From positions 212,303-276,302 of the forward strand of contig CAYOSF010000001.1 in the NCBI GenBank assembly GCA_964406605.1: a stretch of 64,000 nucleotides of DNA, read 5' to 3'. Positions 1,941-62,531 of the stretch are shown here, one piece after another. Position numbers and translations under genes: made by a program. Source of the DNA: an uncultured Dehalococcoidia bacterium. Lineage in GTDB: Bacteria; Chloroflexota; Dehalococcoidia; DSTF01; RBG-16-68-14. How positions within the stretch are numbered: position 1 is the first letter of the stretch; each line of letters starts with the position of its first letter. The notes under the pieces were generated by a model that searched no databases, was not told the origin of the DNA, and was given only the letters and a program-made list of their open reading frames with translations.

Positions 1941-3524
1941 CTAGACCGCGATGCCCAGCGGCGCCTTGACGTCGCGCCAGGCCTGGCGCTCCTGACCGTG
2001 GGGGTCGTGATCGAGCCGGCATTCGCCGCGATCGAAGACCATGGTGGCGCGCTCTTCGAGGGAATAGGCGGGCCACTGCGGTAGGCCGGCATGCCCGGGG
2101 TTGCCGCCGCGGGCGAACGCGATCCATGCCTCGCTCATCTGCGCCGCGAGCGTCGCCCGGCTGGCGGACTCGTTCATGATCGGGGGATGGACGTTGTCGA
2201 ATACGAATGGGATCTCGAAGCCGTGCGCGGAGCCCAGCGGTCCGGCCGCCCAGACGAAGTAGTACATGAATACGGGCGCCTTTCCGCCCGCGAGCTTGCG
2301 CTCGGCCAGGTTGATCGAGGGGATGCGCATCATACGGTCGCTCTCGATAGCGATCAGGAGATCGCGTGGCGACGCGTCGGGGCGGCCCTCGCGGTAGGCG
2401 GCGACGATCGGCGCGGCGTCGTCGCCCAGCGCCGCGAGCCGGTGGAGGAGCCCATCGCCTTCGAGGGCCTGGTCATCGCCTGGTGCGGGGTTCATGGCCA
2501 GGAAGAGCGACGCCTCGTCGCGGTTGCAGCCGATGAGCATCGGGACGTCCGGCGCGATGCCGTCGGCCAGCGCGATCTCTGGATGGTTGGGCGCGACGAC
2601 GCCGTCGAGGACCGGGGCGTAGGCCATGACCGCGGGGCGATCGCCTCGCCGCCCGAGCGCGGCATGCGCGGCGAGGAGGCGGTCCGCAGGCAGGGATTGC
2701 AACTCGTCGATCCGGTCTGTCTCGAGGTCGAGTGCGGCGAACGTTCGCTCCGCGACCTTCGTGGCTTCCGGGACGGCGCGGAGGCGCAGGGAAGGTCCGC
2801 TTTGGACGACCGCCCGGTGGAAGAGCCCGCGTGTGGCCGGCATCGCCAGCAGCGTGCAGATCTTGGCGCCGCCGCCCGACTCGCCGAAGACCGTGACGTT
2901 GCCGGGGTCGCCGCCGAACGCCTCGCTGTTGTCGCGCACCCACTCGAGCGCCGCGACCAGATCGAGCATCCCCGCGTTGCCCGAGGATGCGAACCGAGGC
3001 CCGGCCAGCTCCCCGAGGTGCAGGTAGCCGAAGATGCCGAGGCGGTGGTTGAGCGTGATGACCACCACATCACCGCGCCGGGCCAGCGCCGCACCGTCGT
3101 AGAGCGGCCAGGACCCGGAGCCGATGCTGAAGCCGCCTCCGTGAATCCACACCATGACCGGGCGGCGCGCGCCGCCGGCGGTACCCGGCGTCCACACGTT
3201 GAGGACGAGGCAGGCCTCCGATTCCGACGCCTCCGGCCACCAGCCCGGCGGACGCTCGGGCGGTTGCGGGCACGAGGGACCGTACTCGAACGCGTCCCGC
3301 ACGCCCGACCATGGCTCCGGCGGCGCCGGAGCGAGGAAACGCCGGGAGCCGGTCGGAGGCGCCCCGTACGGGATGCCTTTGAAGACGGACACCCCATCAT
3401 GCGCCTGGCCGCGCACCTTGCCGGCCTTCGTCTCTACGGTAGGATCGCTCACGTCGGACCTCCTTTCCGGCAGCCCGAGGGTCTGCCCGGCGGCAGCGCC
3501 ATCGGACAACGCGGAACGCTGCAA
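1941..3524 (-). CDS. type-B carboxylesterase/lipase (para-nitrobenzyl esterase-like)
   Basis: The 527-aa ORF contains HGGGF and GESGGG, which match the oxyanion-hole and nucleophile-elbow GESAG-type motifs of COesterase-family enzymes. The start may be at an internal Met. Confidence 0.85.
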
Positions 3525-5225: not shown

Positions 5226-5708
5226 GTGGAAGCCGAACTGGAGAACTACCGGAAGGAGATCGTCCTCCTCCTCGGCCGTCTCGCCAGGCTGCTGGACGGG
5301 CTTGGCGAATCCGAGCTGAACTGGCGCCCACCCGCTCCGGAAACGAACAGCCTGTACGTCATCGCTTCCCACGTCTTGGGCAACTCGGAGGCGTGGGTGC
5401 TTGGCATCGTTTGCGGTCAGGACGTGCACCGTGACCGCGACGCTGAGTTTGGGAGCAGTGGACCCGATCCGGCGGTGTTGATCGAGCGCGCTCAGCGTTT
5501 GGCGAGCGAGATGTCCACAGCGTTGGAGGCGCTTCCTCCCTCCGCACTGGACGAGACCCGACACCCCAGGCGTCCCCTGCTAGGGTTAGGTCCCGCTGAC
5601 GAGTTGACCGTGCGCCAGGCTCTGATGCGGGTTCTGGTCCATGCGCTGATGCACATCGGGCAGATGCAGATCACTCGGGACCTTGCCCTTGCGCGCACGA
5701 CGGACTAG
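5226..5708 (+). CDS. DinB/YfiT-like (DinB_2 superfamily) metal-dependent four-helix-bundle protein
   Basis: The protein contains WRPPAPETNSLYVIASHVLGNSEAW and the C-terminal VHALMHIGQMQITR, matching the H-x-H pattern of the DinB_2 / mycothiol-dependent isomerase N-terminal-like fold. The start is a GTG. Confidence 0.6.
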   Translation: MEAELENYRKEIVLLLGRLARLLDGLGESELNWRPPAPETNSLYVIASHVLGNSEAWVLGIVCGQDVHRDRDAEFGSSGPDPAVLIERAQRLASEMSTALEALPPSALDETRHPRRPLLGLGPADELTVRQALMRVLVHALMHIGQMQITRDLALARTTD

Positions 5709-55510: not shown

Positions 55511-58500
55511 CTACCGGAAGCTGTGCGTGCGCTCGTGGGGCACGCGGGCGTCATCGAGCGGCAGCCGCTCCATGCGCTGCGTGACGACGTTGACCGCGCG
55601 CTCCTGCCGCTCGATGTGGCCGTGGACGATGAGGGCGCCCGCCTCGGTGACGAGCTGCTTGTAGCGCCGGACCAGGCCCGGGTTGGTGATGACGTTGATC
55701 AGCCCGTAGCGGTCTTCCAGCGTGTGGAAGACGAATCCCTTCGCGGTCTCCGGCGCTTGGCGGACGGCGACGAAACCGGCGACCGTCACCTTCGTTCCGT
55801 GTTCGAGCCGCTCGACGATGTGGCTGGGCGTGATGCCTTCGTGCAATGCGCCCGTGGCCAGGTCCGTGATGTGGCCGCGCGTGGAGACGGCGCCCTCCGT
55901 GAGGACGAGGTCCTCGCGCACCCGCTCGCCGTCGTTCATCTCCAGTAGCGTCACCATCTCGGCTTCGTAGGGGAGAGCGAGGGGAGACTGCGCGCCCAGG
56001 GGCTGGTAAAAGAGACCGAGCTGCCAGAGCAGCTCTCGCTCGTGGAGTCCGGTGAAGGCGAAGGCGCCGAGACGGATCAAGTGTTCGATCGGCTCCCGGG
56101 GGAGGCGGGTGCGATGCCAGAAGTCCCAGAGGGAGAGGTAGAGGCCCCGATCTGAGCTTGCCGAACCGTTGTGTCCCGGCGGAGTGTAGTGGGTGCTCTG
56201 GGCAGCGGGCTCCTCCGTCATTCTGAGCGCCAGCGAAGGATCCGGCCTTTGTGGAGAGGAGGCTTTCGAAGGGCTAGACCCTTCGCTTCGCTCAGGGTGA
56301 CCGAGGGTTTGATGCGCCTCCTCGTCCAATCGCTTGAGGGCCGCCTCGCCGATTCCCTTGACATAATTGAACCCGAGACGGATCGCATCATCTTTCCCCT
56401 CGGCGGGCGGGCTCTCGATGATGCATTCCGAGCGGCTGCGGTTGACGTCGACGCCCAGGATCTCGACGCCGTTGCGGCGCGCCTCGTTGACGACGACGCC
56501 GGGGCTGTAGAAGCCGAAGGGCCACTCGTTGAGCCAGGCGCAGTAGAACTCCAGTGGGTAGTAGCGCTTCACCCAGGCGAGCTTGCCGGCCGTCTCCGCC
56601 ATCGCCGCGGCGTGCGCCTTGGGGAAGCCGAACTCGGCGAAGGCGAGGATCTTGCCGAAGATGCGCTGGGCCGTCGCCTCGTCCACCAGGCCCTTCTGGC
56701 GGGCGCTCTCCAGGAACGTCTCCCGCAGCCGCTCCATCTCCTCCCGCGAGCGCTTGCGACTCATCGCGCGGCGCAGGCTCTCGGCCTGGCCCGCCGTGAA
56801 GCCGGCGACGGCCATCGCTACCTCCAGGACCTGCTCCTGGAAGACGATGACGCCTTTGGTCTCGCTCAAGATCGGCTCCAGGCACTCGTGGTCATAGGTG
56901 ACCGGCTCCGCGCCCTGGCAGCGCAGGATGTAGGGGTTGACGGCGCCGCCCTGGATGGGACCAGGCCGGATGAGGGCGACCTGGATCACCAGGTCCTCGA
57001 TGGAGCTGATCTTGAGGCGCAGGATCGCCTGGAGCTGGGCGCGGCTCTGGATCTGGACGATACCCAGGATGTCGCCGCGCTGGATCATCTCATAGACCTG
57101 CGGGTCGTCGAGGGGGACGCGCACGGGGTCGATGCGGCGGCCGTGGCGCTCCTCGATGAGCTGGAGGGAGCGGTAGAGGTGGCCCAGGCTGGGGTAGCCG
57201 AGGAAGTCCATCTTGATGAAGCCGGCGTCGGCCACGGAGTCCTTGTCCCACTGGCAGATGTAGCGGCCGTCCATAGCCGAGGGCTGGACCGGCACCTGCT
57301 CGACGATCGGGGTGCTGGAGATGATGACGCCGCCGGAGTGCTGGCTGAGGTGGCGGGGCTTGCCGCGCAACTCCTCTACCAACCGCACGAACTCGCGCCA
57401 GACCGGCGCGTGCATCCGGCTCCGGAACTCAGGCATCGCCTGCATCTCCTCGACCAGGGAGTGAGCGAAGCGACGCCGCATCCGTTTGGCCAGCTTGTCG
57501 ACGTCGGCCTCCGGCAGCCCCAGGGCTTTGCCCACGTCGCGGATCGCCATCGGGTAGCGATAGGTGATGACGTTGGCGACGAGCGCCGCCCGCTCCGTGC
57601 CGTAGGTGGCGAAGACGTGCTCGAACATCCGCTCGCGGGCGTCGCGGGCGAAGTCGAGGTCGATGTCGGGCACGTCCTCCTTCTGGCGGGCTTCATTGAG
57701 GAAGCGGCCGACGAAGAGATCGTACTTGATCGGGTCGATGCCGGAGAGTCCCAGCAGGTAGCAGACCAGAGACCCGACGGAGGAGCCCCGGCCCCGGGCC
57801 GGCAGCTCGTGTTCGTGGGCGTAGCGCATCAGCTCCCAGTTGCGCAGGAAGAAGCCGGCCTGGCCGGCCTGCCGGATCAGGTCCAGCTCGTGGCGGAGTC
57901 GATCTTTCACTTTGGGCGCGGCCCAGCCGTAGAGCTCGCGGGCGCTGGCGAGGCAGACCTCCTCGAGGAACTCGTCGGCTGTCCTGCCCGCGGGCGCTTC
58001 GAAGTCGGGAAAGCGATAGGTCAGGTCGCGGGTGAGGTCAAAGCCCTGCCCTGAGCTTGTCGAAGGGGCCTGGGGCGCGCCCTGAGCGAAGCCGAAGGGC
58101 GGCTGGTTGTTATTCTCTGGGGTGGGGTTGGCGCTGTAGGGGCCGGATTCTTCGCTTCGCTCAGAATGACAGTTGGGAACGCAGCGCTCGGCGATGACGA
58201 GGGTGTTGCTGATCGCCTCCGGCAGGTCGGCGAAGAGGGCGGTCATCTCCTGCGGCGGCTTCAGGTAGAACTCCGCGTTCTTGCGACGCAGCCGCTCCGA
58301 GGCGTCCAGCGTGGTGCGGTGGCGCACGGCCACCAGCACGTCCTGAAGTCGATGGCGGGCGCGCTCGTGGTAGTGGACGTTGTTGGTGGCGACGACGCCC
58401 AGGCCGAGATCCCGGGCCAGCGCCACGAGGCCCCGGTTGCGGGGCCGGTCGCCGTAGACCAAGTTGTCCTGGAGCTCGATCCAGAAGCCCTCCCGGCCGA

Positions 58501-59002
58501 ACAGATCCAGGTAGCGGCCGGCGGCCCGGTGCGCGCCTTCGATGTCTCCGGCGGCGACGAGGCGGGGCACCTCGCCCTGCCGACAGCCGGAGAGGGCGAT
58601 GAGCCCCTCGGTGTGTCCGGCGAGGGCTTCCGGGTCGAGGACGGGCTCGTCACGCGGGCTGGAGAGATGGGCCTGCGAGAGGAGGCGGCTCAGGTTGGCG
58701 TAGCCGCGCGGCGTCTCAGCGAGCAGAGTGAGGTGATGACTTGTAGGGGCGCACGATTGTGCGTCCCTACCTGGCGATGTGCCACCACGAAGGGTCACCT
58801 CGGCGCCGATGATCGGGCGGACGCCCCACTCCTTGGCCGCCTGGGCGAACTCCATTGCGCCGGCCAGGCCGTCGTGGTCGGTGAGCGCAAGCGCCGGGTA
58901 GCCGAGCCGGCGCGCCTCGAGCACCAGTTCGAGCGGCGTGGAGGCGCCTTCCCGGAAGGAGAAGCAGGAATGGCAGTGGAGCTCAACGTAGGATGTGTTC
59001 AT
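55511..59002 (-). CDS. dnaE2: DnaE-type DNA polymerase III alpha subunit, probably the error-prone DnaE2/ImuC type, carrying two in-frame repeat-element insertions
   Basis: The PHP domain reads MNTSYVELHCHSCFSFREGASTPLELV, followed by the pol-beta-like and finger regions and an OB-fold near the C-terminus (HTLEDRYGLINVITNP). The protein ends about 20 aa after the OB-fold with no tau-binding tail. Its native length after removing about 100 inserted residues is about 1060 aa. A catalytically dead imuB-type Y-family polymerase gene lies 2.3 kb away. The DnaE2 assignment is inference with confidence about 0.6; the DnaE-family call is solid. Confidence 0.85.
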   Translation of the reverse strand: MNTSYVELHCHSCFSFREGASTPLELVLEARRLGYPALALTDHDGLAGAMEFAQAAKEWGVRPIIGAEVTLRGGTSPGRDAQSCAPTSHHLTLLAETPRGYANLSRLLSQAHLSSPRDEPVLDPEALAGHTEGLIALSGCRQGEVPRLVAAGDIEGAHRAAGRYLDLFGREGFWIELQDNLVYGDRPRNRGLVALARDLGLGVVATNNVHYHERARHRLQDVLVAVRHRTTLDASERLRRKNAEFYLKPPQEMTALFADLPEAISNTLVIAERCVPNCHSERSEESGPYSANPTPENNNQPPFGFAQGAPQAPSTSSGQGFDLTRDLTYRFPDFEAPAGRTADEFLEEVCLASARELYGWAAPKVKDRLRHELDLIRQAGQAGFFLRNWELMRYAHEHELPARGRGSSVGSLVCYLLGLSGIDPIKYDLFVGRFLNEARQKEDVPDIDLDFARDARERMFEHVFATYGTERAALVANVITYRYPMAIRDVGKALGLPEADVDKLAKRMRRRFAHSLVEEMQAMPEFRSRMHAPVWREFVRLVEELRGKPRHLSQHSGGVIISSTPIVEQVPVQPSAMDGRYICQWDKDSVADAGFIKMDFLGYPSLGHLYRSLQLIEERHGRRIDPVRVPLDDPQVYEMIQRGDILGIVQIQSRAQLQAILRLKISSIEDLVIQVALIRPGPIQGGAVNPYILRCQGAEPVTYDHECLEPILSETKGVIVFQEQVLEVAMAVAGFTAGQAESLRRAMSRKRSREEMERLRETFLESARQKGLVDEATAQRIFGKILAFAEFGFPKAHAAAMAETAGKLAWVKRYYPLEFYCAWLNEWPFGFYSPGVVVNEARRNGVEILGVDVNRSRSECIIESPPAEGKDDAIRLGFNYVKGIGEAALKRLDEEAHQTLGHPERSEGSSPSKASSPQRPDPSLALRMTEEPAAQSTHYTPPGHNGSASSDRGLYLSLWDFWHRTRLPREPIEHLIRLGAFAFTGLHERELLWQLGLFYQPLGAQSPLALPYEAEMVTLLEMNDGERVREDLVLTEGAVSTRGHITDLATGALHEGITPSHIVERLEHGTKVTVAGFVAVRQAPETAKGFVFHTLEDRYGLINVITNPGLVRRYKQLVTEAGALIVHGHIERQERAVNVVTQRMERLPLDDARVPHERTHSFR
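56217..56301. mobile_element. MITE-like palindromic element (copy B) inserted in-frame in dnaE2
   Basis: The plus-strand sequence is GTCATTCTGAGCGCCAGCGAAGGATCCGGCC...CCCTTCGCTTCGCTCAGGGTGAC. The terminal inverted repeats are about CCCTGAGCGAAGCGAAGG. The element is read through as HPERSEGSSPSKASSPQRPDPSLALRMTEE in the polymerase. Confidence 0.6.
58045..58172. mobile_element. MITE-like palindromic element (copy A, opposite orientation to B, with a partial extra TIR copy) inserted in-frame in dnaE2
   Basis: The coding-strand sequence is GTCATTCTGAGCGAAGCGAAGAATCCGGCC...CCCTTCGGCTTCGCTCAGGG. This gives about 85% identity to copy B over the ends. It is read through as CHSERSEESGPYSANPTPENNNQPPFGFAQGAPQAPSTSSG, between the conserved AERC and FDLTRDLTYRFP segments. 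Confidence 0.6.
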
Positions 59003-59067
59003 CGGTATACAGTGATGCCGATCTGGTATATACTAATGGTGACCTTGTATTAACTGAGAGGTGCATC

Positions 59068-59343
59068 GTGGCTATCGCAACTATCTCTGCCAAGGGGTGG
59101 GTCGTCATCCCGCAGGAAATCCGCAAGCGGTACGGCCTGAAAAAGGGCGACAAGGTTCATATCATCGACTACGCCGGGCGTATCGCCATCGTCCCTGCTC
59201 TCAAGGACCCGGTCCGACAAGCACGAGGGATGCTCAGGGGTGGGCCCTCGCTGACAAAGGCGCTGCTGGAGGAGCGTCGCTGGGAGCTGGAGAAGGAAGA
59301 GCGGAAGCTCCAGCGCTGGTCGGGCGATGCCAAGGCACAGTAG
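59068..59343 (+). CDS. vapB: AbrB/MazE/SpoVT-type antitoxin (VapB-like)
   Basis: The protein contains VAIATISAKGWVVIPQEIRKRYGLKKGDKVHII (looped-hinge helix swapped-hairpin fold). It is 4 nt upstream of a PIN-domain gene. Confidence 0.7.
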   Translation: MAIATISAKGWVVIPQEIRKRYGLKKGDKVHIIDYAGRIAIVPALKDPVRQARGMLRGGPSLTKALLEERRWELEKEERKLQRWSGDAKAQ

Positions 59344-59347
59344 TCCC

Positions 59348-59767
59348 ATGCCGGTCCGATTTGTGCTGGATTCTTTCGCGGTAATGGCGCTCTTGCTGGA
59401 CGAGCAGGGAGCGGCCAGAGTCGAGGAGCTGCTAGAAGGGGCTGGCATGGGAGAGCATGAACTATACATAACGGTCGTCAATCTGGGGGAGGTTCTCTAC
59501 ACGTTCGAGAACCGACGCGATATGGAGGCCGCTCAGGAGGCGCTGGCCTTTGTTGACCAATCGCCTATCGAGATCGTAGAAGTCGATCGATCTCTGGCCC
59601 TGAACGCGGCACGGCTGAAGGCGACGACGGGGATGGGCTACGTCGACTGTTTTGTCGCGGGCTGCGCTCAGCGCCTGGATGCTGCCGTCGTCACCGGCGA
59701 CCCTGACTTCCGGCGAGTCGAGGATCTGGTGGCCATCGAGTGGTTGCCAGGGGCTGAGGAGGAGTAG
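59348..59767 (+). CDS. vapC: PIN-domain ribonuclease toxin (VapC-like)
   Basis: The protein starts MPVRFVLDSFAV (first acidic residue) and contains ...GEVLYTFE..., VDCFVAGCAQRLDAAVVTGDPDF, in the pattern of conserved PIN acidic residues. Confidence 0.75.
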   Translation: MPVRFVLDSFAVMALLLDEQGAARVEELLEGAGMGEHELYITVVNLGEVLYTFENRRDMEAAQEALAFVDQSPIEIVEVDRSLALNAARLKATTGMGYVDCFVAGCAQRLDAAVVTGDPDFRRVEDLVAIEWLPGAEEE

Positions 59768-59924
59768 TGGCTCTCGCAGGAGACCCAGCGGTGTCGAGGC
59801 GTTCTGCCAGAGGGAGAAGCAGCGGCAGTGAAGTTGGCCGTAGGTCACGGATCAATGATAGCGAACACATGTTCTATCCGCAACCCCGACGGGACGGCAT
59901 TGCAGTAGGGGATACCGCTCAGCC

Positions 59925-60605
59925 ATGGCCCGCCTCCGGACGCTGAGGGAAGCCTTTCTGGCCGGTCTCTTCGTGGTGTTCCTGGCCGGCACCCTGTTCG
60001 GCTCGGCCGGCCGCGTCGACTGGCCGATGGCGTGGGCCTACCTCGCCGTCTACCTGGCGTTCACCGTGGGCGCCTTCTTCGTCCTCGACCCGGAGCTGAT
60101 CCGGGAGCGCGGTAGGGCGGAGAGCGGGATCGAGCGAAGGGACGCGGCGCTGGCGAGCTTCGCCTTCATCTGGCTGTATCCGTTGCCGCTCATCGTCGCG
60201 GGGCTGGACACTGGTCGCTACGGCTGGTCGCCGGACATTCCGTTGGCGGCGCAGGCGGCGGCTCTGGCGATCTTCGCGCTCGCGCTCGGCTTCGCGTTCT
60301 GGGCGATGATGGTCAACCGGTTCTTCTCGACGTTCGTCAGGATCCAGAGCGAGCGCGGGCACCACGTCGTGACCGGCGGGCCCTACGCGTACGTCCGTCA
60401 CCCGGGCTACAGCGGCACCATCCTGTCGACGGTTGTGCTGCCCATCGCGCTTGGGTCCTTGTGGGCGCTCATCCCCGCGTGCATCGGGGGGTTCCTGTTC
60501 GCCGTTCGCACGCAGCTCGAGGACAGGACGCTACAGGAGGAACTGACCGGGTATCGCGAGTACGCGGCGAACGTCCGCTGGCGTCTGCTTCCCGGCGTGT
60601 GGTGA
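59925..60605 (+). CDS. isoprenylcysteine carboxyl methyltransferase (ICMT/PEMT) family membrane methyltransferase
   Basis: Multiple TM segments are followed by the C-terminal VVTGGPYAYVRHPGYSG...FLFAVRTQLED...EE SAM-binding signature. Confidence 0.75.
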   Translation: MARLRTLREAFLAGLFVVFLAGTLFGSAGRVDWPMAWAYLAVYLAFTVGAFFVLDPELIRERGRAESGIERRDAALASFAFIWLYPLPLIVAGLDTGRYGWSPDIPLAAQAAALAIFALALGFAFWAMMVNRFFSTFVRIQSERGHHVVTGGPYAYVRHPGYSGTILSTVVLPIALGSLWALIPACIGGFLFAVRTQLEDRTLQEELTGYREYAANVRWRLLPGVW

Positions 60606-60658
60606 CGGGCGGGGTACGTTGGCGGTGTCCCGGTGACGGAGTCTCCGCTTCCAGGTAG

Positions 60659-61042
60659 CTACGGCTTCGGCGGCGGCTCGTAGGAGAAGATCGTCTTCAC
60701 CGGCGGCAGCAAGAACGGTGGCGCGGTGGCCGAGACGTAGATGAGCGGCTCGTCGCCGGGGTTGTAGATGGCGTGGTCGGTCTTGGGCGGGACGAAGACC
60801 ATCGTGCCCGGCCCGACCTCCTCTTGCTCCTCTGCGACTTTCATCAGCCCGCGACCGCGGACGATGACGTAGACCTGCTCGTTGTCTGGGTGGGCGTGCA
60901 TGGCTTGCTCGCTGCCGGGCTCTCCCTCCACCCAGGTGATGGACATATTGGACGATCCGAACTGGCCCTTGGTCAGCAGGAGGTACGAGACCTGACCGCC
61001 GCGATGGTTGCGCGGGCTTTCTTCGATGGTCTGCGTGTGCAT
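60659..61042 (-). CDS. cupin-domain protein
   Basis: The protein contains HAHPDNEQVYVIVRGRG...GTMVFVPPKTDHAIYNPG (cupin motifs 1 and 2). The start is taken at the internal Met MHTQTIEE. Confidence 0.7.
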   Translation of the reverse strand: MHTQTIEESPRNHRGGQVSYLLLTKGQFGSSNMSITWVEGEPGSEQAMHAHPDNEQVYVIVRGRGLMKVAEEQEEVGPGTMVFVPPKTDHAIYNPGDEPLIYVSATAPPFLLPPVKTIFSYEPPPKP

Positions 61043-61119
61043 CTGGGTTCCTCCGTCCCCATTGGCGTCCTTCGTTGCTGAGGGCGAGTGTAGCACGGGC
61101 GGGTGGGGGAGCTAGGGAC

Positions 61120-61410
61120 TCACCCATACCGCTGCTCCCACCACGATCCCTTGATCTCGTCTCGGAACGCGGTCACCACGCGACCGTCCTCCAGCAGCAG
61201 CTCGTAGTAGGTGCGGGAGACGGGCTCCGCCGTCCACCAGCGGTCGTCCGTCCGGTAGCGGTCCAGCACCTCGTCCACCCCTAGCCAGCGACCGTTGCGC
61301 AGGAGCGCGCTCGGGGCGCCGTCGACGCCCGCGCGCACCTCGACCTGCCGGGGAGCGTTCAGGCGTCGTAGGGTAGGAGGGCGTTCCGCTCCTCCGGGTG
61401 TCGGGACCAC
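61120..61410 (-). CDS. small Trp-rich ORF overlapping the imuB 3' end by 52 nt; probably the detached C-terminal domain of ImuB (frameshift or split gene)
   Basis: The 96-aa ORF lies in a different frame and ends in ...RWWTAEPVSRTYYELLLEDGRVVTAFRDEIKGSWWEQRYG. The ImuB-like ORF is about 100-130 aa shorter than typical ImuB proteins. A GTG start is also possible just after the imuB stop. Confidence 0.4.
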   Translation of the reverse strand: MVPTPGGAERPPTLRRLNAPRQVEVRAGVDGAPSALLRNGRWLGVDEVLDRYRTDDRWWTAEPVSRTYYELLLEDGRVVTAFRDEIKGSWWEQRYG

Positions 61411-62531
61411 GGGTCCACCTCCTCGATGCGCCAGATCATCGGCCGGCCGTAGCGGGCGCGGAGCTGCCGGATGGCCTCGGCGATCTGGTTGAGGTTCTGC
61501 TTCGTGTCGTTGAAGAGCTTGGCCTGCTTCGCCACCTCCCGGCCGATACCGGTCAGGGTGACGGTGACGGTATCGACGGCCTGGGGCAGCTCCAGCAGCG
61601 CCAGGCGGGTCTTGAGCACGAGTGTCATGAGGCGCTCGTCCCCGGTGGGCTCCCGGAACGTCTCGAACCGCTCCCAGACGATGCGCTCCTCGGCCAGGAG
61701 CTGGACGTGCATGCGGCGCGCCGTGCGCCCTCGCAGGCGGCGGACCAGGCGCGCCAGGAGCTGCCGGCCGGCCATCGTCAGCGCCTCCGTCGTCGCCACG
61801 GGAGCATCGAAGCTCAGCCGGTCGCTGAGCGCCTGCTGGCGCTTGCGGGGGTGGAGCGGCTCCTCATCGATGCCGCTGGCCAGCTCCCAGAGGCGCTTGC
61901 CGGCGCGGCGGAACTGCGCCTCGACGGACGGCTGGGGCAGGGCGGCGACGTCGCCCAGCGTGCGTAGGGCGAGCAGATCGAGTCGTTGTATGACATCCAG
62001 ATCGAAGGGGAGGAGGGAGACGTCCTTGTCCTGAAGGAACTCCTGCTCGTGGCCTTTCGGGACGACGCCGGCATCGCCCGGAGGGGTGATGGACGCGGCG
62101 GCCCAGGCGACGAACTTCCCTTCCGCGATGCCGGTGCCGGCGAGCAGGCCCGTCGCCCGGCGGGCCGCTTCGACCAAGTCTCCGGCCAGGACGAACTCGT
62201 CCTCGTAGTGGCCCTGGAGCCCTTGTATGTCGGCGTAGGCGCAGCCGAGCCCGGCGGGCTCGACCTGAGGAGCGACGTCCTCCAGACCGTCCAGCATCGC
62301 CTCGAACGCGGCGCGGTAGAGGGCGTGGTCGGCATCGATGAAGGCGGCGTGTGGGCAGAGGGCCTTCGCCTGCCGGAGCGGCAGCCCTTCGCAGACTCCC
62401 GCGGCGTCGGGCGACGCGTCGAGGACGGTGTGCCGGTCGTAGACGATGACCGGTCCGCCCGTGGTGGACGGGTCTCGCAGCGATTCCACCACGACGGCGA
62501 AGGAGGGGATGAGGACGCAGGCGATACGCAC
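61359..62531 (-). CDS. imuB: catalytically inactive Y-family polymerase, ImuB-like
   Basis: It has the Y-family fold. The N-terminal MRIACVLIPSFAVVVE replaces the DinB catalytic D-x-D (VDMDCFFAAVE). LGCAYADI replaces the S-(L/I)-D-E-A-Y-L-D acidic pair. A GTG start has a GGGAG Shine-Dalgarno. Confidence 0.75.
   Translation of the reverse strand: MRIACVLIPSFAVVVESLRDPSTTGGPVIVYDRHTVLDASPDAAGVCEGLPLRQAKALCPHAAFIDADHALYRAAFEAMLDGLEDVAPQVEPAGLGCAYADIQGLQGHYEDEFVLAGDLVEAARRATGLLAGTGIAEGKFVAWAAASITPPGDAGVVPKGHEQEFLQDKDVSLLPFDLDVIQRLDLLALRTLGDVAALPQPSVEAQFRRAGKRLWELASGIDEEPLHPRKRQQALSDRLSFDAPVATTEALTMAGRQLLARLVRRLRGRTARRMHVQLLAEERIVWERFETFREPTGDERLMTLVLKTRLALLELPQAVDTVTVTLTGIGREVAKQAKLFNDTKQNLNQIAEAIRQLRARYGRPMIWRIEEVDPWSRHPEERNALLPYDA

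Follow-up and report, generated by a model that had tools for sequence, protein, structure and literature searches.

Relics of REP-type palindromic repeats as the probable origin of low-complexity inserts in a Dehalococcoidia dnaE2 gene

Introduction

What is the origin of the low-complexity segments that lengthen an otherwise intact DNA polymerase gene in a 64,000-nt stretch of genome from an uncultured Dehalococcoidia bacterium? The stretch (contig CAYOSF010000001.1, positions 212,303 to 276,302) is referred to here as the window, and coordinates are counted from its first letter. The gene, dnaE2, occupies 55511..59002 on the minus strand and encodes an error-prone DNA polymerase III alpha-type protein of 1163 aa, identified by its reading frame and by Pfam, NCBIfam and PDB matches. 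An initial annotation had read two segments of the gene as copies of one element resembling a miniature inverted-repeat transposable element (MITE), tolerated in frame in the manner of the Rickettsia palindromic elements (RPEs). We find that the low-complexity segments are very probably relics of repetitive extragenic palindromic (REP)-type repeats that were inserted into a functional dnaE2.

Results

Identity and integrity of the polymerase gene

The assignment to a DnaE2-like polymerase without interruption is upheld by NCBIfam, by Pfam and by intact catalytic motifs. A single continuous open reading frame (ORF) spans the whole gene, with Pfam matches to the PHP, pol3_alpha (NTPase/palm), finger, HHH_6 (in two pieces) and OB domains. 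The NCBIfam model NF004225, 'error-prone DNA polymerase', is matched just over its threshold (946.6 bits against a cut-off of 939), and Pol III alpha structures in the PDB match strongly (Taq 2hpi, E = 1.5e-143). The palm catalytic motifs PDIDLDF and KMDFLG are present and are invariant across 40 orthologs; among the marks of DnaE2/ImuC, the palm aspartates are thus kept, the NCBIfam cut-off is passed and an imuB-type gene lies nearby. Chloroflexi/Dehalococcoidia metagenome bins supply the closest homologs, which usually measure 1039-1044 aa. Both GC and third-position GC (GC3) equal those of carB and the aconitase gene of the same window. From the domains, motifs, structure matches and host-like composition we therefore take the gene to be a resident and apparently functional dnaE2.

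Two inserts built from tagged hairpins and a third palindrome

Insert 1 (58043..58180, minus strand) adds about 45 residues (aa 275-320) where PHP and palm meet, with AERC before them and FDLTRD after them, and insert 2 (56147..56311, minus strand) adds about 55 residues (aa 898-952) to the helix-hairpin-helix (HhH; beta-binding) domain, between LDEEA and GLYLSLWDFW, where the Pfam HHH_6 match is split in two. Both are built from hairpin units of 24-28 nt, (C/T)GTCAYYCTGAGC-GAA-GCGAAGRRTC, paired with their tags outward. The stem of each unit, or arm, runs over 8-9 positions and includes a tandem G.A/A.G mismatch, the loop is centred on GAA, and the tail is ATC; in the stem ATTCTGAGC/GCGAAGAAT two of the nine positions are the G.A/A.G mismatches. 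The loop in the window is GAA (CGAAG if the closing pair is counted), with GCCA in one arm, and the unpaired tails read CCG in two arms and CTA in one.

Insert 1 is entered through arm B-right, a TGTC-tagged canonical hairpin (TGTCATTCTGAGCGAAGCGAAGAATCC; 58145..58171, minus strand) that is read as CHSERSEES and includes the exact 20-mer used for the genome scan described below. It pairs over a 45-nt spacer with arm B-left, a degenerate partner that has lost its tag and gained a 1-nt insertion (CCCTGAGCGAAGCCGAAGGG; 58080..58099, plus strand). Insert 2 is entered through arm A-right, a hairpin tagged GGTC (GGTCACCCTGAGCGAAGCGAAGGGTCT; 56276..56302, minus strand; read as GHPERSEGS), and left through arm A-left, a CGTC-tagged hairpin with the 4-nt loop (CGTCATTCTGAGCGCCAGCGAAGGATCC; 56216..56243, plus strand; read as DPSLALRMT); the two form an 85-nt head-to-head dimer, tags outward, around a 32-nt spacer (56217-56301). 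Besides its dimer each insert holds a solo arm. That of insert 1 is an untagged loop-variant subtype (CCCTGAGCTTGTCGAAGGG; 58049..58067, plus strand; read as PSTSSGQG), and that of insert 2 is degenerate and untagged (TCTGAGCTTGCCGAACC; 56151..56167, plus strand; read as GSASSD), lying at the gene-distal end in the same relative position as its counterpart (direct-repeat families). A third in-frame palindrome, GTAGGGGCGCAC-GATT-GTGCGTCCCTAC (whole: GTAGGGGCGCACGATTGTGCGTCCCTAC; 58743..58770), has a 12-bp stem and lies in an insert of about 14-16 aa (aa 73-88) in a loop of the PHP domain; it is GTAG-initiated and belongs to a separate repeat class. Members of its family occupy the same loop in the ortholog at locus L125 (position 3741) and other places in L008 and L087. 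A long hairpin is formed by copy A (56217-56301; z = -3.8), and the third palindrome folds more strongly still (z = -4.9; 0/200 shuffles fold as well), with copy B (58080-58171) weaker (z = -1.8); judged from their sequences, copy B and the solo arms appear to be decaying.

The elements are thus decaying CGTC/TGTC-tagged REP-type (Ssn-motif-like) hairpin dimers, with solo arms and a GTAG-type palindrome. This anatomy departs in several respects from that first proposed. Two repeat-built inserts had been recognized correctly, as had the inverted repeats within them, with the solo arm of each insert and the third palindrome overlooked. The motif TTCGCTTCGCTCAG, with up to two mismatches, matches five times in the window against 1.0 expected; four of the matches are in dnaE2, and three of these are arms of the two inserts. 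A loose arm core with one mismatch allowed proved too noisy, at equal density inside and outside the gene, and was replaced by a tag-plus-stem detector that requires a GTCA tag and a complementary outer stem. This detector finds three arms in the window, all in dnaE2, against 0-1 in shuffles (about 0.1 expected per window). The claim of opposite orientations is borne out at the level of arm subtype, since about 30 nt of arm A-left, with the tail ATCCGGCC among them, match B-right in reverse complement. The spacers of A and B align no better than shuffled sequence and are unrelated, so that the claim of two copies of one element gives way to two dimers of one arm family. Nor are both elements multiples of three, at 85 nt and 128 nt as originally delimited; only the net inserts are. 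The originally described terminal-repeat peptide P/S-E-R-S-E-E/G-S does recur, as both inserts are entered in frame reading H-[S/P]-E-R-S-E-[E/G]. Two of the six frames are open in element A and four of six in element B, and the arms tolerate translation in two of the three frames per strand. No Pfam match falls within the inserts (14-55 aa each, all in continuous frame), and an Rfam scan of the gene region gave just two sub-threshold chance matches.

Patchy insertion at recurrent loops of DnaE2 orthologs

In the ortholog alignment most sequences lack insert 1 (reading AERC-T-FDLT) and insert 2, in agreement with the proposal that the inserts are lineage-specific. Indels of at least 6 aa in 104 full-length orthologs fall nearly all at four positions, namely the PHP loop, AERC|FDLT, CIIE|DAIRLG and the HhH loop, and the ortholog loops hold peptides typical of several repeat families (HSEPFASAQDKLREES...DPSLTLRVTE, ILRFAQND, CFASLSMAD, PPVKTGG and GEGTGVRE). 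When insert presence was mapped on a tree built from core columns, the window polymerase, with inserts of 14/43/54 aa, was found to differ from its sister P0001 (28/7/0 aa), and the pairs P0012 and P0013, and P0006 and P0011, likewise differ from each other. Presence that is patchy between sisters points to repeated, fairly recent gains or losses. The solo-arm unit of insert 1 (8 aa/24 nt) stands alone at the same site in P0001, P0004, P0015, P0018, L121 and L123, and also in the distant ortholog L136 (49% identity). On sequence evidence, then, the orthologs appear to have gained insertions of several repeat families independently at the same four loops.

Further repeat-like peptides were observed in the DnaE2 loops of P0001, P0002, P0005, P0012, P0049, P0056 and P0080-P0082, among them TPPVKTGG/TPRVETRG, RGLKPPAS, APLPLGEGTGVREE and ACPEPRRR; this variety suggests that several unrelated palindromic repeat families use DnaE2 sites. 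At site 1 (58043-58067) the solo arm ends …CTCAGGGCAGGGC directly before a native TTCGAC, and the arm also holds TTCGAC. In the comparison of L121, L123, L136, P0003, L122 and L144, the site in certain 'empty' orthologs has the form C-(Q/R)-G-FDLT (tgc cag ggc ttc gac), perhaps the footprint of an excised or deleted arm. Insertion or, alternatively, deletion guided by microhomology may lie behind this pattern.

Predicted structure of the insert sites

An AlphaFold model of the polymerase (predicted template modelling score 0.69) has no secondary structure at residues 76-84, 278-318 and 902-951, where the predicted local distance difference test score is below 50, and these residues are flanked by confident helices. 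The alignment with Taq Pol III breaks at residues 281-290, within insert 1. The three repeat-bearing loops are therefore predicted to be disordered, and in the model the inserts map to loops. Given the hot-spot loops, the predicted disorder and the frame tolerance of the arms, selection of frame-preserving insertions in permissive loops is a sufficient explanation of the insert positions.

The arm family in other genomes

One genome per species was scanned with the exact 20-mer TTCGCTTCGCTCAGRRTGAC, which gave at least 120 loci (L001-L120) in Acidobacteriota, Nitrospirota, Chloroflexota, Bacteroidota, Firmicutes, Gemmatimonadota, Verrucomicrobiota, the Candidate Phyla Radiation (CPR) and others. 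Among the matches listed, the usual form is tGTCAYYCTGAG-loop-CGAAGRRTC followed by a short spacer and an inverted arm, which together make a head-to-head dimer; the tag is TGTC in 107 (80%) and CGTC in 21 (16%) of 133 arms, and the inner stem bases, which the search left unconstrained, are complementary to the outer RR in 123/133. Arms lie in long open frames in 13/135 cases, compared with 308/595 random positions, and no protein family stands consistently beside them at these loci, with occasional GIY-YIG genes only, which fits non-autonomous repeats. Whole dimers with identical spacers are repeated within single genomes, for example at L107 and L014. Arms of this kind form a hairpin family that spans phyla, exists in many copies and is mostly extragenic. 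A literature search for the arm sequence and its encoded peptides returned nothing relevant.

One 20-nt arm sequence is common to at least 10 phyla, from CPR/Patescibacteria to Acidobacteriota and Firmicutes; changes in the outer stem are only compensatory, and this nucleotide conservation between phyla is unusually strong for a non-coding repeat. Real in-frame insertions of single arms were also observed in unrelated genes of other phyla, all three confirmed by Pfam: in a queuine tRNA-ribosyltransferase, Tgt (L072, arm at 3275; …VLRFAQDDN…), in a phosphomethylpyrimidine/pyridoxal-type kinase (L119, arm at 5282; …ILRFAQDDR…) and in the linker between the receiver and AAA+ domains of an NtrC-type regulator (L032, arm at 2764; …PPERSEES…).

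Association of the arms with small GIY-YIG genes

Ssn proteins are small single-domain GIY-YIG (cd10448) nucleases that recognize CGTCAT-tagged hairpin repeats (NTS/SRM), binding them in single-stranded form and cleaving beside them (PMC11893778); the layout NTS-ssnA-NTS is like that of an insertion sequence (IS), and Rickettsia and Wolbachia are among the genomes rich in SRM (Chenal et al. 2025, PMC11893778). In 7/7 loci examined, the arm family described here flanks small GIY-YIG genes (about 95 aa) on either side: L057 (3061-3592), L014 (5700-6660), L198 (3990-4470), L201/L202 (1386-1900), L203-L208 (1267-2064), L209 (1385-1868) and L182, which is degraded. Some of these genes are flanked by two direct copies of one head-to-head dimer, and many of the contigs that carry them are shorter than 2 kb. 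The protein is matched by the GIY-YIG model of Pfam (E = 1.7e-12) and by no NCBIfam model, and in about 12/120 homologs the arm supplies its C-terminal peptide (DPSLRSG, DSSLRSE) and TGA stop. A candidate single-stranded target for an arm-flanked enzyme, such as the L209 or L201 protein, is TGTCATTCTGAGCGAAGCGAAGAATC. The arrangement is already published as the Ssn/NTS system (PMC11893778) and is not new here. The arms around these loci have no match to the degenerate SRM pattern HGTCWYN(0-2)YYVSBRHN(0-5)WNVSBRGN(0-2)RNCYNB (PMC11893778), and neither do those of the window, so that the subfamily (C/T)GTCAYYCTGAGCGAAGCGAAGRRTC is overlooked by that pattern.

Genes around dnaE2

The mutasome cassette is split in the window (59002-62531), with dnaE2 separated from an IMS-family (ImuB-like) ORF upstream of it (61359-62531, minus strand) and from a 198-aa ORF that carries no annotation and is possibly ImuA' (60531-61127, minus strand). 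A MazE/AbrB-PIN (VapBC-like) pair (58993-59767, plus strand) and an ICMT/PEMT-type methyltransferase gene (59925-60605) lie between dnaE2 and the ImuB-like ORF, and the start of the antitoxin ORF overlaps that of dnaE2 by 10 nt.

Discussion

The dnaE2 copies look like old passengers, neutral or slightly harmful, that are trapped in permissive loops, and not like functional domains. The arm family appears linked in other genomes to small GIY-YIG (Ssn-like) single-strand nucleases, and the repeats were presumably spread by such a nuclease or by host recombination and repair at the hairpins. Within dnaE2 the copies would be read as disordered loops that leave the enzyme undestroyed, and would survive because they lie in flexible surface loops, keep the frame and bring no stop in the frame used. 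Copies in a gene under purifying selection should also resist removal, since the frame would be lost in most deletions; those in frame would escape the imprecise deletions by which intergenic copies are erased, and may outlast the latter. Such trapping would explain both the decayed arms and the lack of any other copy in the window.

Several points weigh against this explanation. Within the window no further arm was found outside dnaE2, and as these 64 kb are what was covered of the source genome, multi-copy status in that genome is unproven. The SRM pattern matches none of the three tagged window arms (the NTS control does match), its two hits elsewhere in the window (8191, 25303) are at chance level (shuffles 0-3), and the window holds no GIY-YIG gene, so that the link between the dnaE2 copies and a mobilising enzyme is indirect. 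Comparison with empty sites gave no convincing target-site duplication or clean insertion boundary for either insert. Translation through the inserts and activity of the polymerase are inferred from sequence. Finally, a passenger model accounts for the distribution of arms in the clade of at least 68% identity solely through the proposed trapping: 37 kb of dnaE2 there contain 5 tagged arms, and 147 kb of flanks contain 0 (binomial p = 3e-4 with arms treated as independent, an optimistic value because two arms of one dimer do not count as separate events). That dnaE2 was recently acquired by horizontal transfer was considered as a cause of this confinement and rejected in view of the host-like GC and GC3.

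The clade figures, together with the fact that every arm in the window falls in dnaE2, would also be expected if dnaE2, or repair and replication genes, were a favoured target or sink for hairpin repeats owing to site sequence or structure or to stress-timed expression, and not to random hits filtered by selection. We regard such preferential targeting, which partly overlaps with the explanation by trapped relics, as unlikely. Several repeat families do reuse the same four sites, the same solo arm ends ...SGQG|FDLT in orthologs just 49-61% identical, and the native TTCGAC of site 1 repeats that of the arm. Repair genes, DnaE2 included, are moreover often the sole REP-tagged genes of a species according to Di Nocera, De Gregorio & Rocco 2013 (PMC3733652), who offer preferential targeting and mutator effects as speculation. 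Over all 80 DnaE2 loci, however, arms are not enriched in the gene (2 tagged arms inside against 15 outside), the arms of a dimer are not separate events, and the hot spots coincide with disordered loops, as selection alone predicts. CarB homologs contain far less inserted sequence than DnaE2 (7.9 against 30 aa per protein), but divergence differs between the two homolog sets, and CarB is an essential protein. We also observed that one CarB homolog of 120, P0217, has a 41-aa insert in which the peptide …SPSPSIGRGGRGVRVSG… is repeat-like, and a second insert, 'AAGSGQ', similar to the peptide of the solo arm, so in-frame repeat insertion also hits essential genes of this group, though rarely. 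To account for the confinement of arms to dnaE2 we favour trapping over preferential targeting.

Domestication, in which the hairpins or loops would have been put to use, for instance in modulating how the mutasome assembles or works or in controlling dnaE2 expression through mRNA or DNA structure, is in our view highly improbable. The same positions recur in many lineages, two hairpins are still strongly structured (copy A and the third palindrome), insert 2 lies in the HhH/beta-binding domain, and the mutator effects speculated on in 2013 (PMC3733652) would fit; against this, the inserted sequences are not conserved between orthologs, which carry different repeat families, sister sequences do without them, the peptides are predicted to be disordered, and copy B and the solo arms show signs of decay. 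The unrelated spacers and the lack of another copy in the window might suggest native lineage-specific linkers or low-complexity expansions that resemble the repeat by chance, a reading effectively refuted by the exact 20-nt identity to a repeat at no fewer than 120 loci in many phyla, by the threefold occurrence of the tag-plus-stem design in dnaE2 where about 0.1 was expected per window, and by the empty sites of the closest orthologs. That misassembly or chimerism placed the repeats in the gene is scarcely conceivable: hairpin repeats often break assemblies, as the short GIY-YIG/arm contigs illustrate, but here the frame is kept over all three inserts, the flanks are collinear with those of orthologs, independent assemblies carry comparable inserts at the same sites (P0008-P0010, L143, L153), and the locus sits on a 471-kb contig.

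Relics of REP-type repeats, the origin we prefer, can be compared with several known systems. CGTC-tagged REPs, a class that takes in Neisseria dRS3/NTS and Rickettsia RPE-4/RPE-6, are described in PMC3733652 as having an unpaired terminal CGTC tag (variants TGTC and CCTC), a stem of 8-9 bp opening with A-T, a 4-5-nt loop and, unpaired, a tail of 3 nt with the consensus CCA, and as pairing mainly head to head at distances of 20-100 bp, in dimers able to fold as a single long hairpin. The arms described here share the unpaired CGTC/TGTC tag at one end, head-to-head pairing within that spacing (32 nt in A, 45 nt in B) and a mostly extragenic distribution with occasional in-frame copies, and their AT-initiated stem of 8-9 positions, with its short loop and 3-nt tail, appears similar. 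They differ in the window stem YYCTGAGC/GCGAAGRR with its tandem G.A mismatch, which sets the subfamily apart as far as text descriptions go, and in host, the five phyla given there for CGTC repeats not including Chloroflexota; in addition, one gene here has three insertions of two repeat classes, and its orthologs reuse the same loops. With the NTS/SRM repeats they share an order of parts in which a hairpin comes after the HGTCWY tag and an ATC-type tail after the hairpin, the occurrence of hundreds of copies in some genomes and the bracketing of small single-domain GIY-YIG genes, in all seven loci for the arm subfamily of the window; they differ in escaping the SRM pattern and in the absence of a GIY-YIG gene from the window, and PMC11893778 does not discuss in-frame insertions or Chloroflexota.

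The comparison with RPEs, in-frame selfish repeats (Ogata et al. 2000, as cited in PMC10969869 and PMC3733652), has held up well. Like the descriptions of RPEs in those citing texts, the dnaE2 inserts are in-frame, stop-free palindromic segments at permissive positions of a housekeeping gene, with orthologs that lack them and translated segments that would lie at the surface; the lineage-specific inserts, the multi-copy arm family and the loops predicted to be disordered all agree with selfish repeats tolerated in frame. RPE-1, by contrast, is described there as about 150 bp long with a conserved peptide, whereas 24-28-nt arms and unrelated spacers are found here, and the host is a free-living-type, high-GC member of the Chloroflexota and not an obligate intracellular alphaproteobacterium. 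The likeness may be more than analogy: RPE-4/RPE-6 have been placed in the CGTC REP superfamily (PMC3733652), whose tag, stem, tail and pairing appear to recur in the arms described here. The MITE label is a loose one. The inverted arms are there, and as in MITEs and in REPINs/RAYTs two inverted hairpin units enclose a spacer in a non-coding, non-autonomous unit that is duplicated whole within some genomes (L107, L014). No clear target-site duplication accompanies them, only TTCGAC being common to arm and native site 1 in comparison with empty sites; no parent IS with matching ends was found, and the spacer is not conserved between the window copies. REPINs/RAYTs differ further in that inserts 1 and 2 have neither GTAG-tagged arms nor a RAYT. 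The high novelty at first ascribed to the locus does not stand, since a 2013 paper (PMC3733652) already reports REPs within genes of replication and repair, naming DnaE2 and R. conorii dnaE; events of this type are familiar from Rickettsia and other bacteria, dnaE2 genes included.

A bolder reading, which we consider quite unlikely, is that dnaE2, and perhaps mutasome and repair genes generally, is a true preferred sink for hairpin repeats over distant phyla. Ssn-type (CGTC/TGTC-tagged) units and GTAG-type palindromes would both be inserted or retained there non-randomly, possibly because these genes are single-stranded, transcribed or repaired exactly when hairpin nucleases act. If this were true, repeated remodelling of three or four loops could tune error-prone synthesis, and the confinement seen in the clade and the 2013 observation in Proteobacteria and Verrucomicrobia would be one phenomenon.

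For annotation, the locus illustrates that such inserts inflate protein length and split domain matches, as with HHH_6 here, and annotators should know the recurrent low-complexity peptides that derive from repeats: HSERSEES, DPSLxLRxT, ILRFAQDD and PSxxSGQG. The published SRM search pattern is shown to miss a very widespread arm subfamily, and a single locus joins three literatures, those on RPEs, on CGTC-tagged REPs and on the Ssn/NTS hairpin-nuclease system. The phenomenon of selfish DNA lodged within genes for proteins is thereby extended from Rickettsia and a few Proteobacteria to the Chloroflexota, through an unusually rich example in which one intact polymerase gene has three palindromic insertions of two repeat classes and its orthologs fill the same loops independently with different repeats. 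That REPs recur independently in dnaE2 of another phylum bears on whether repair genes are favoured targets.

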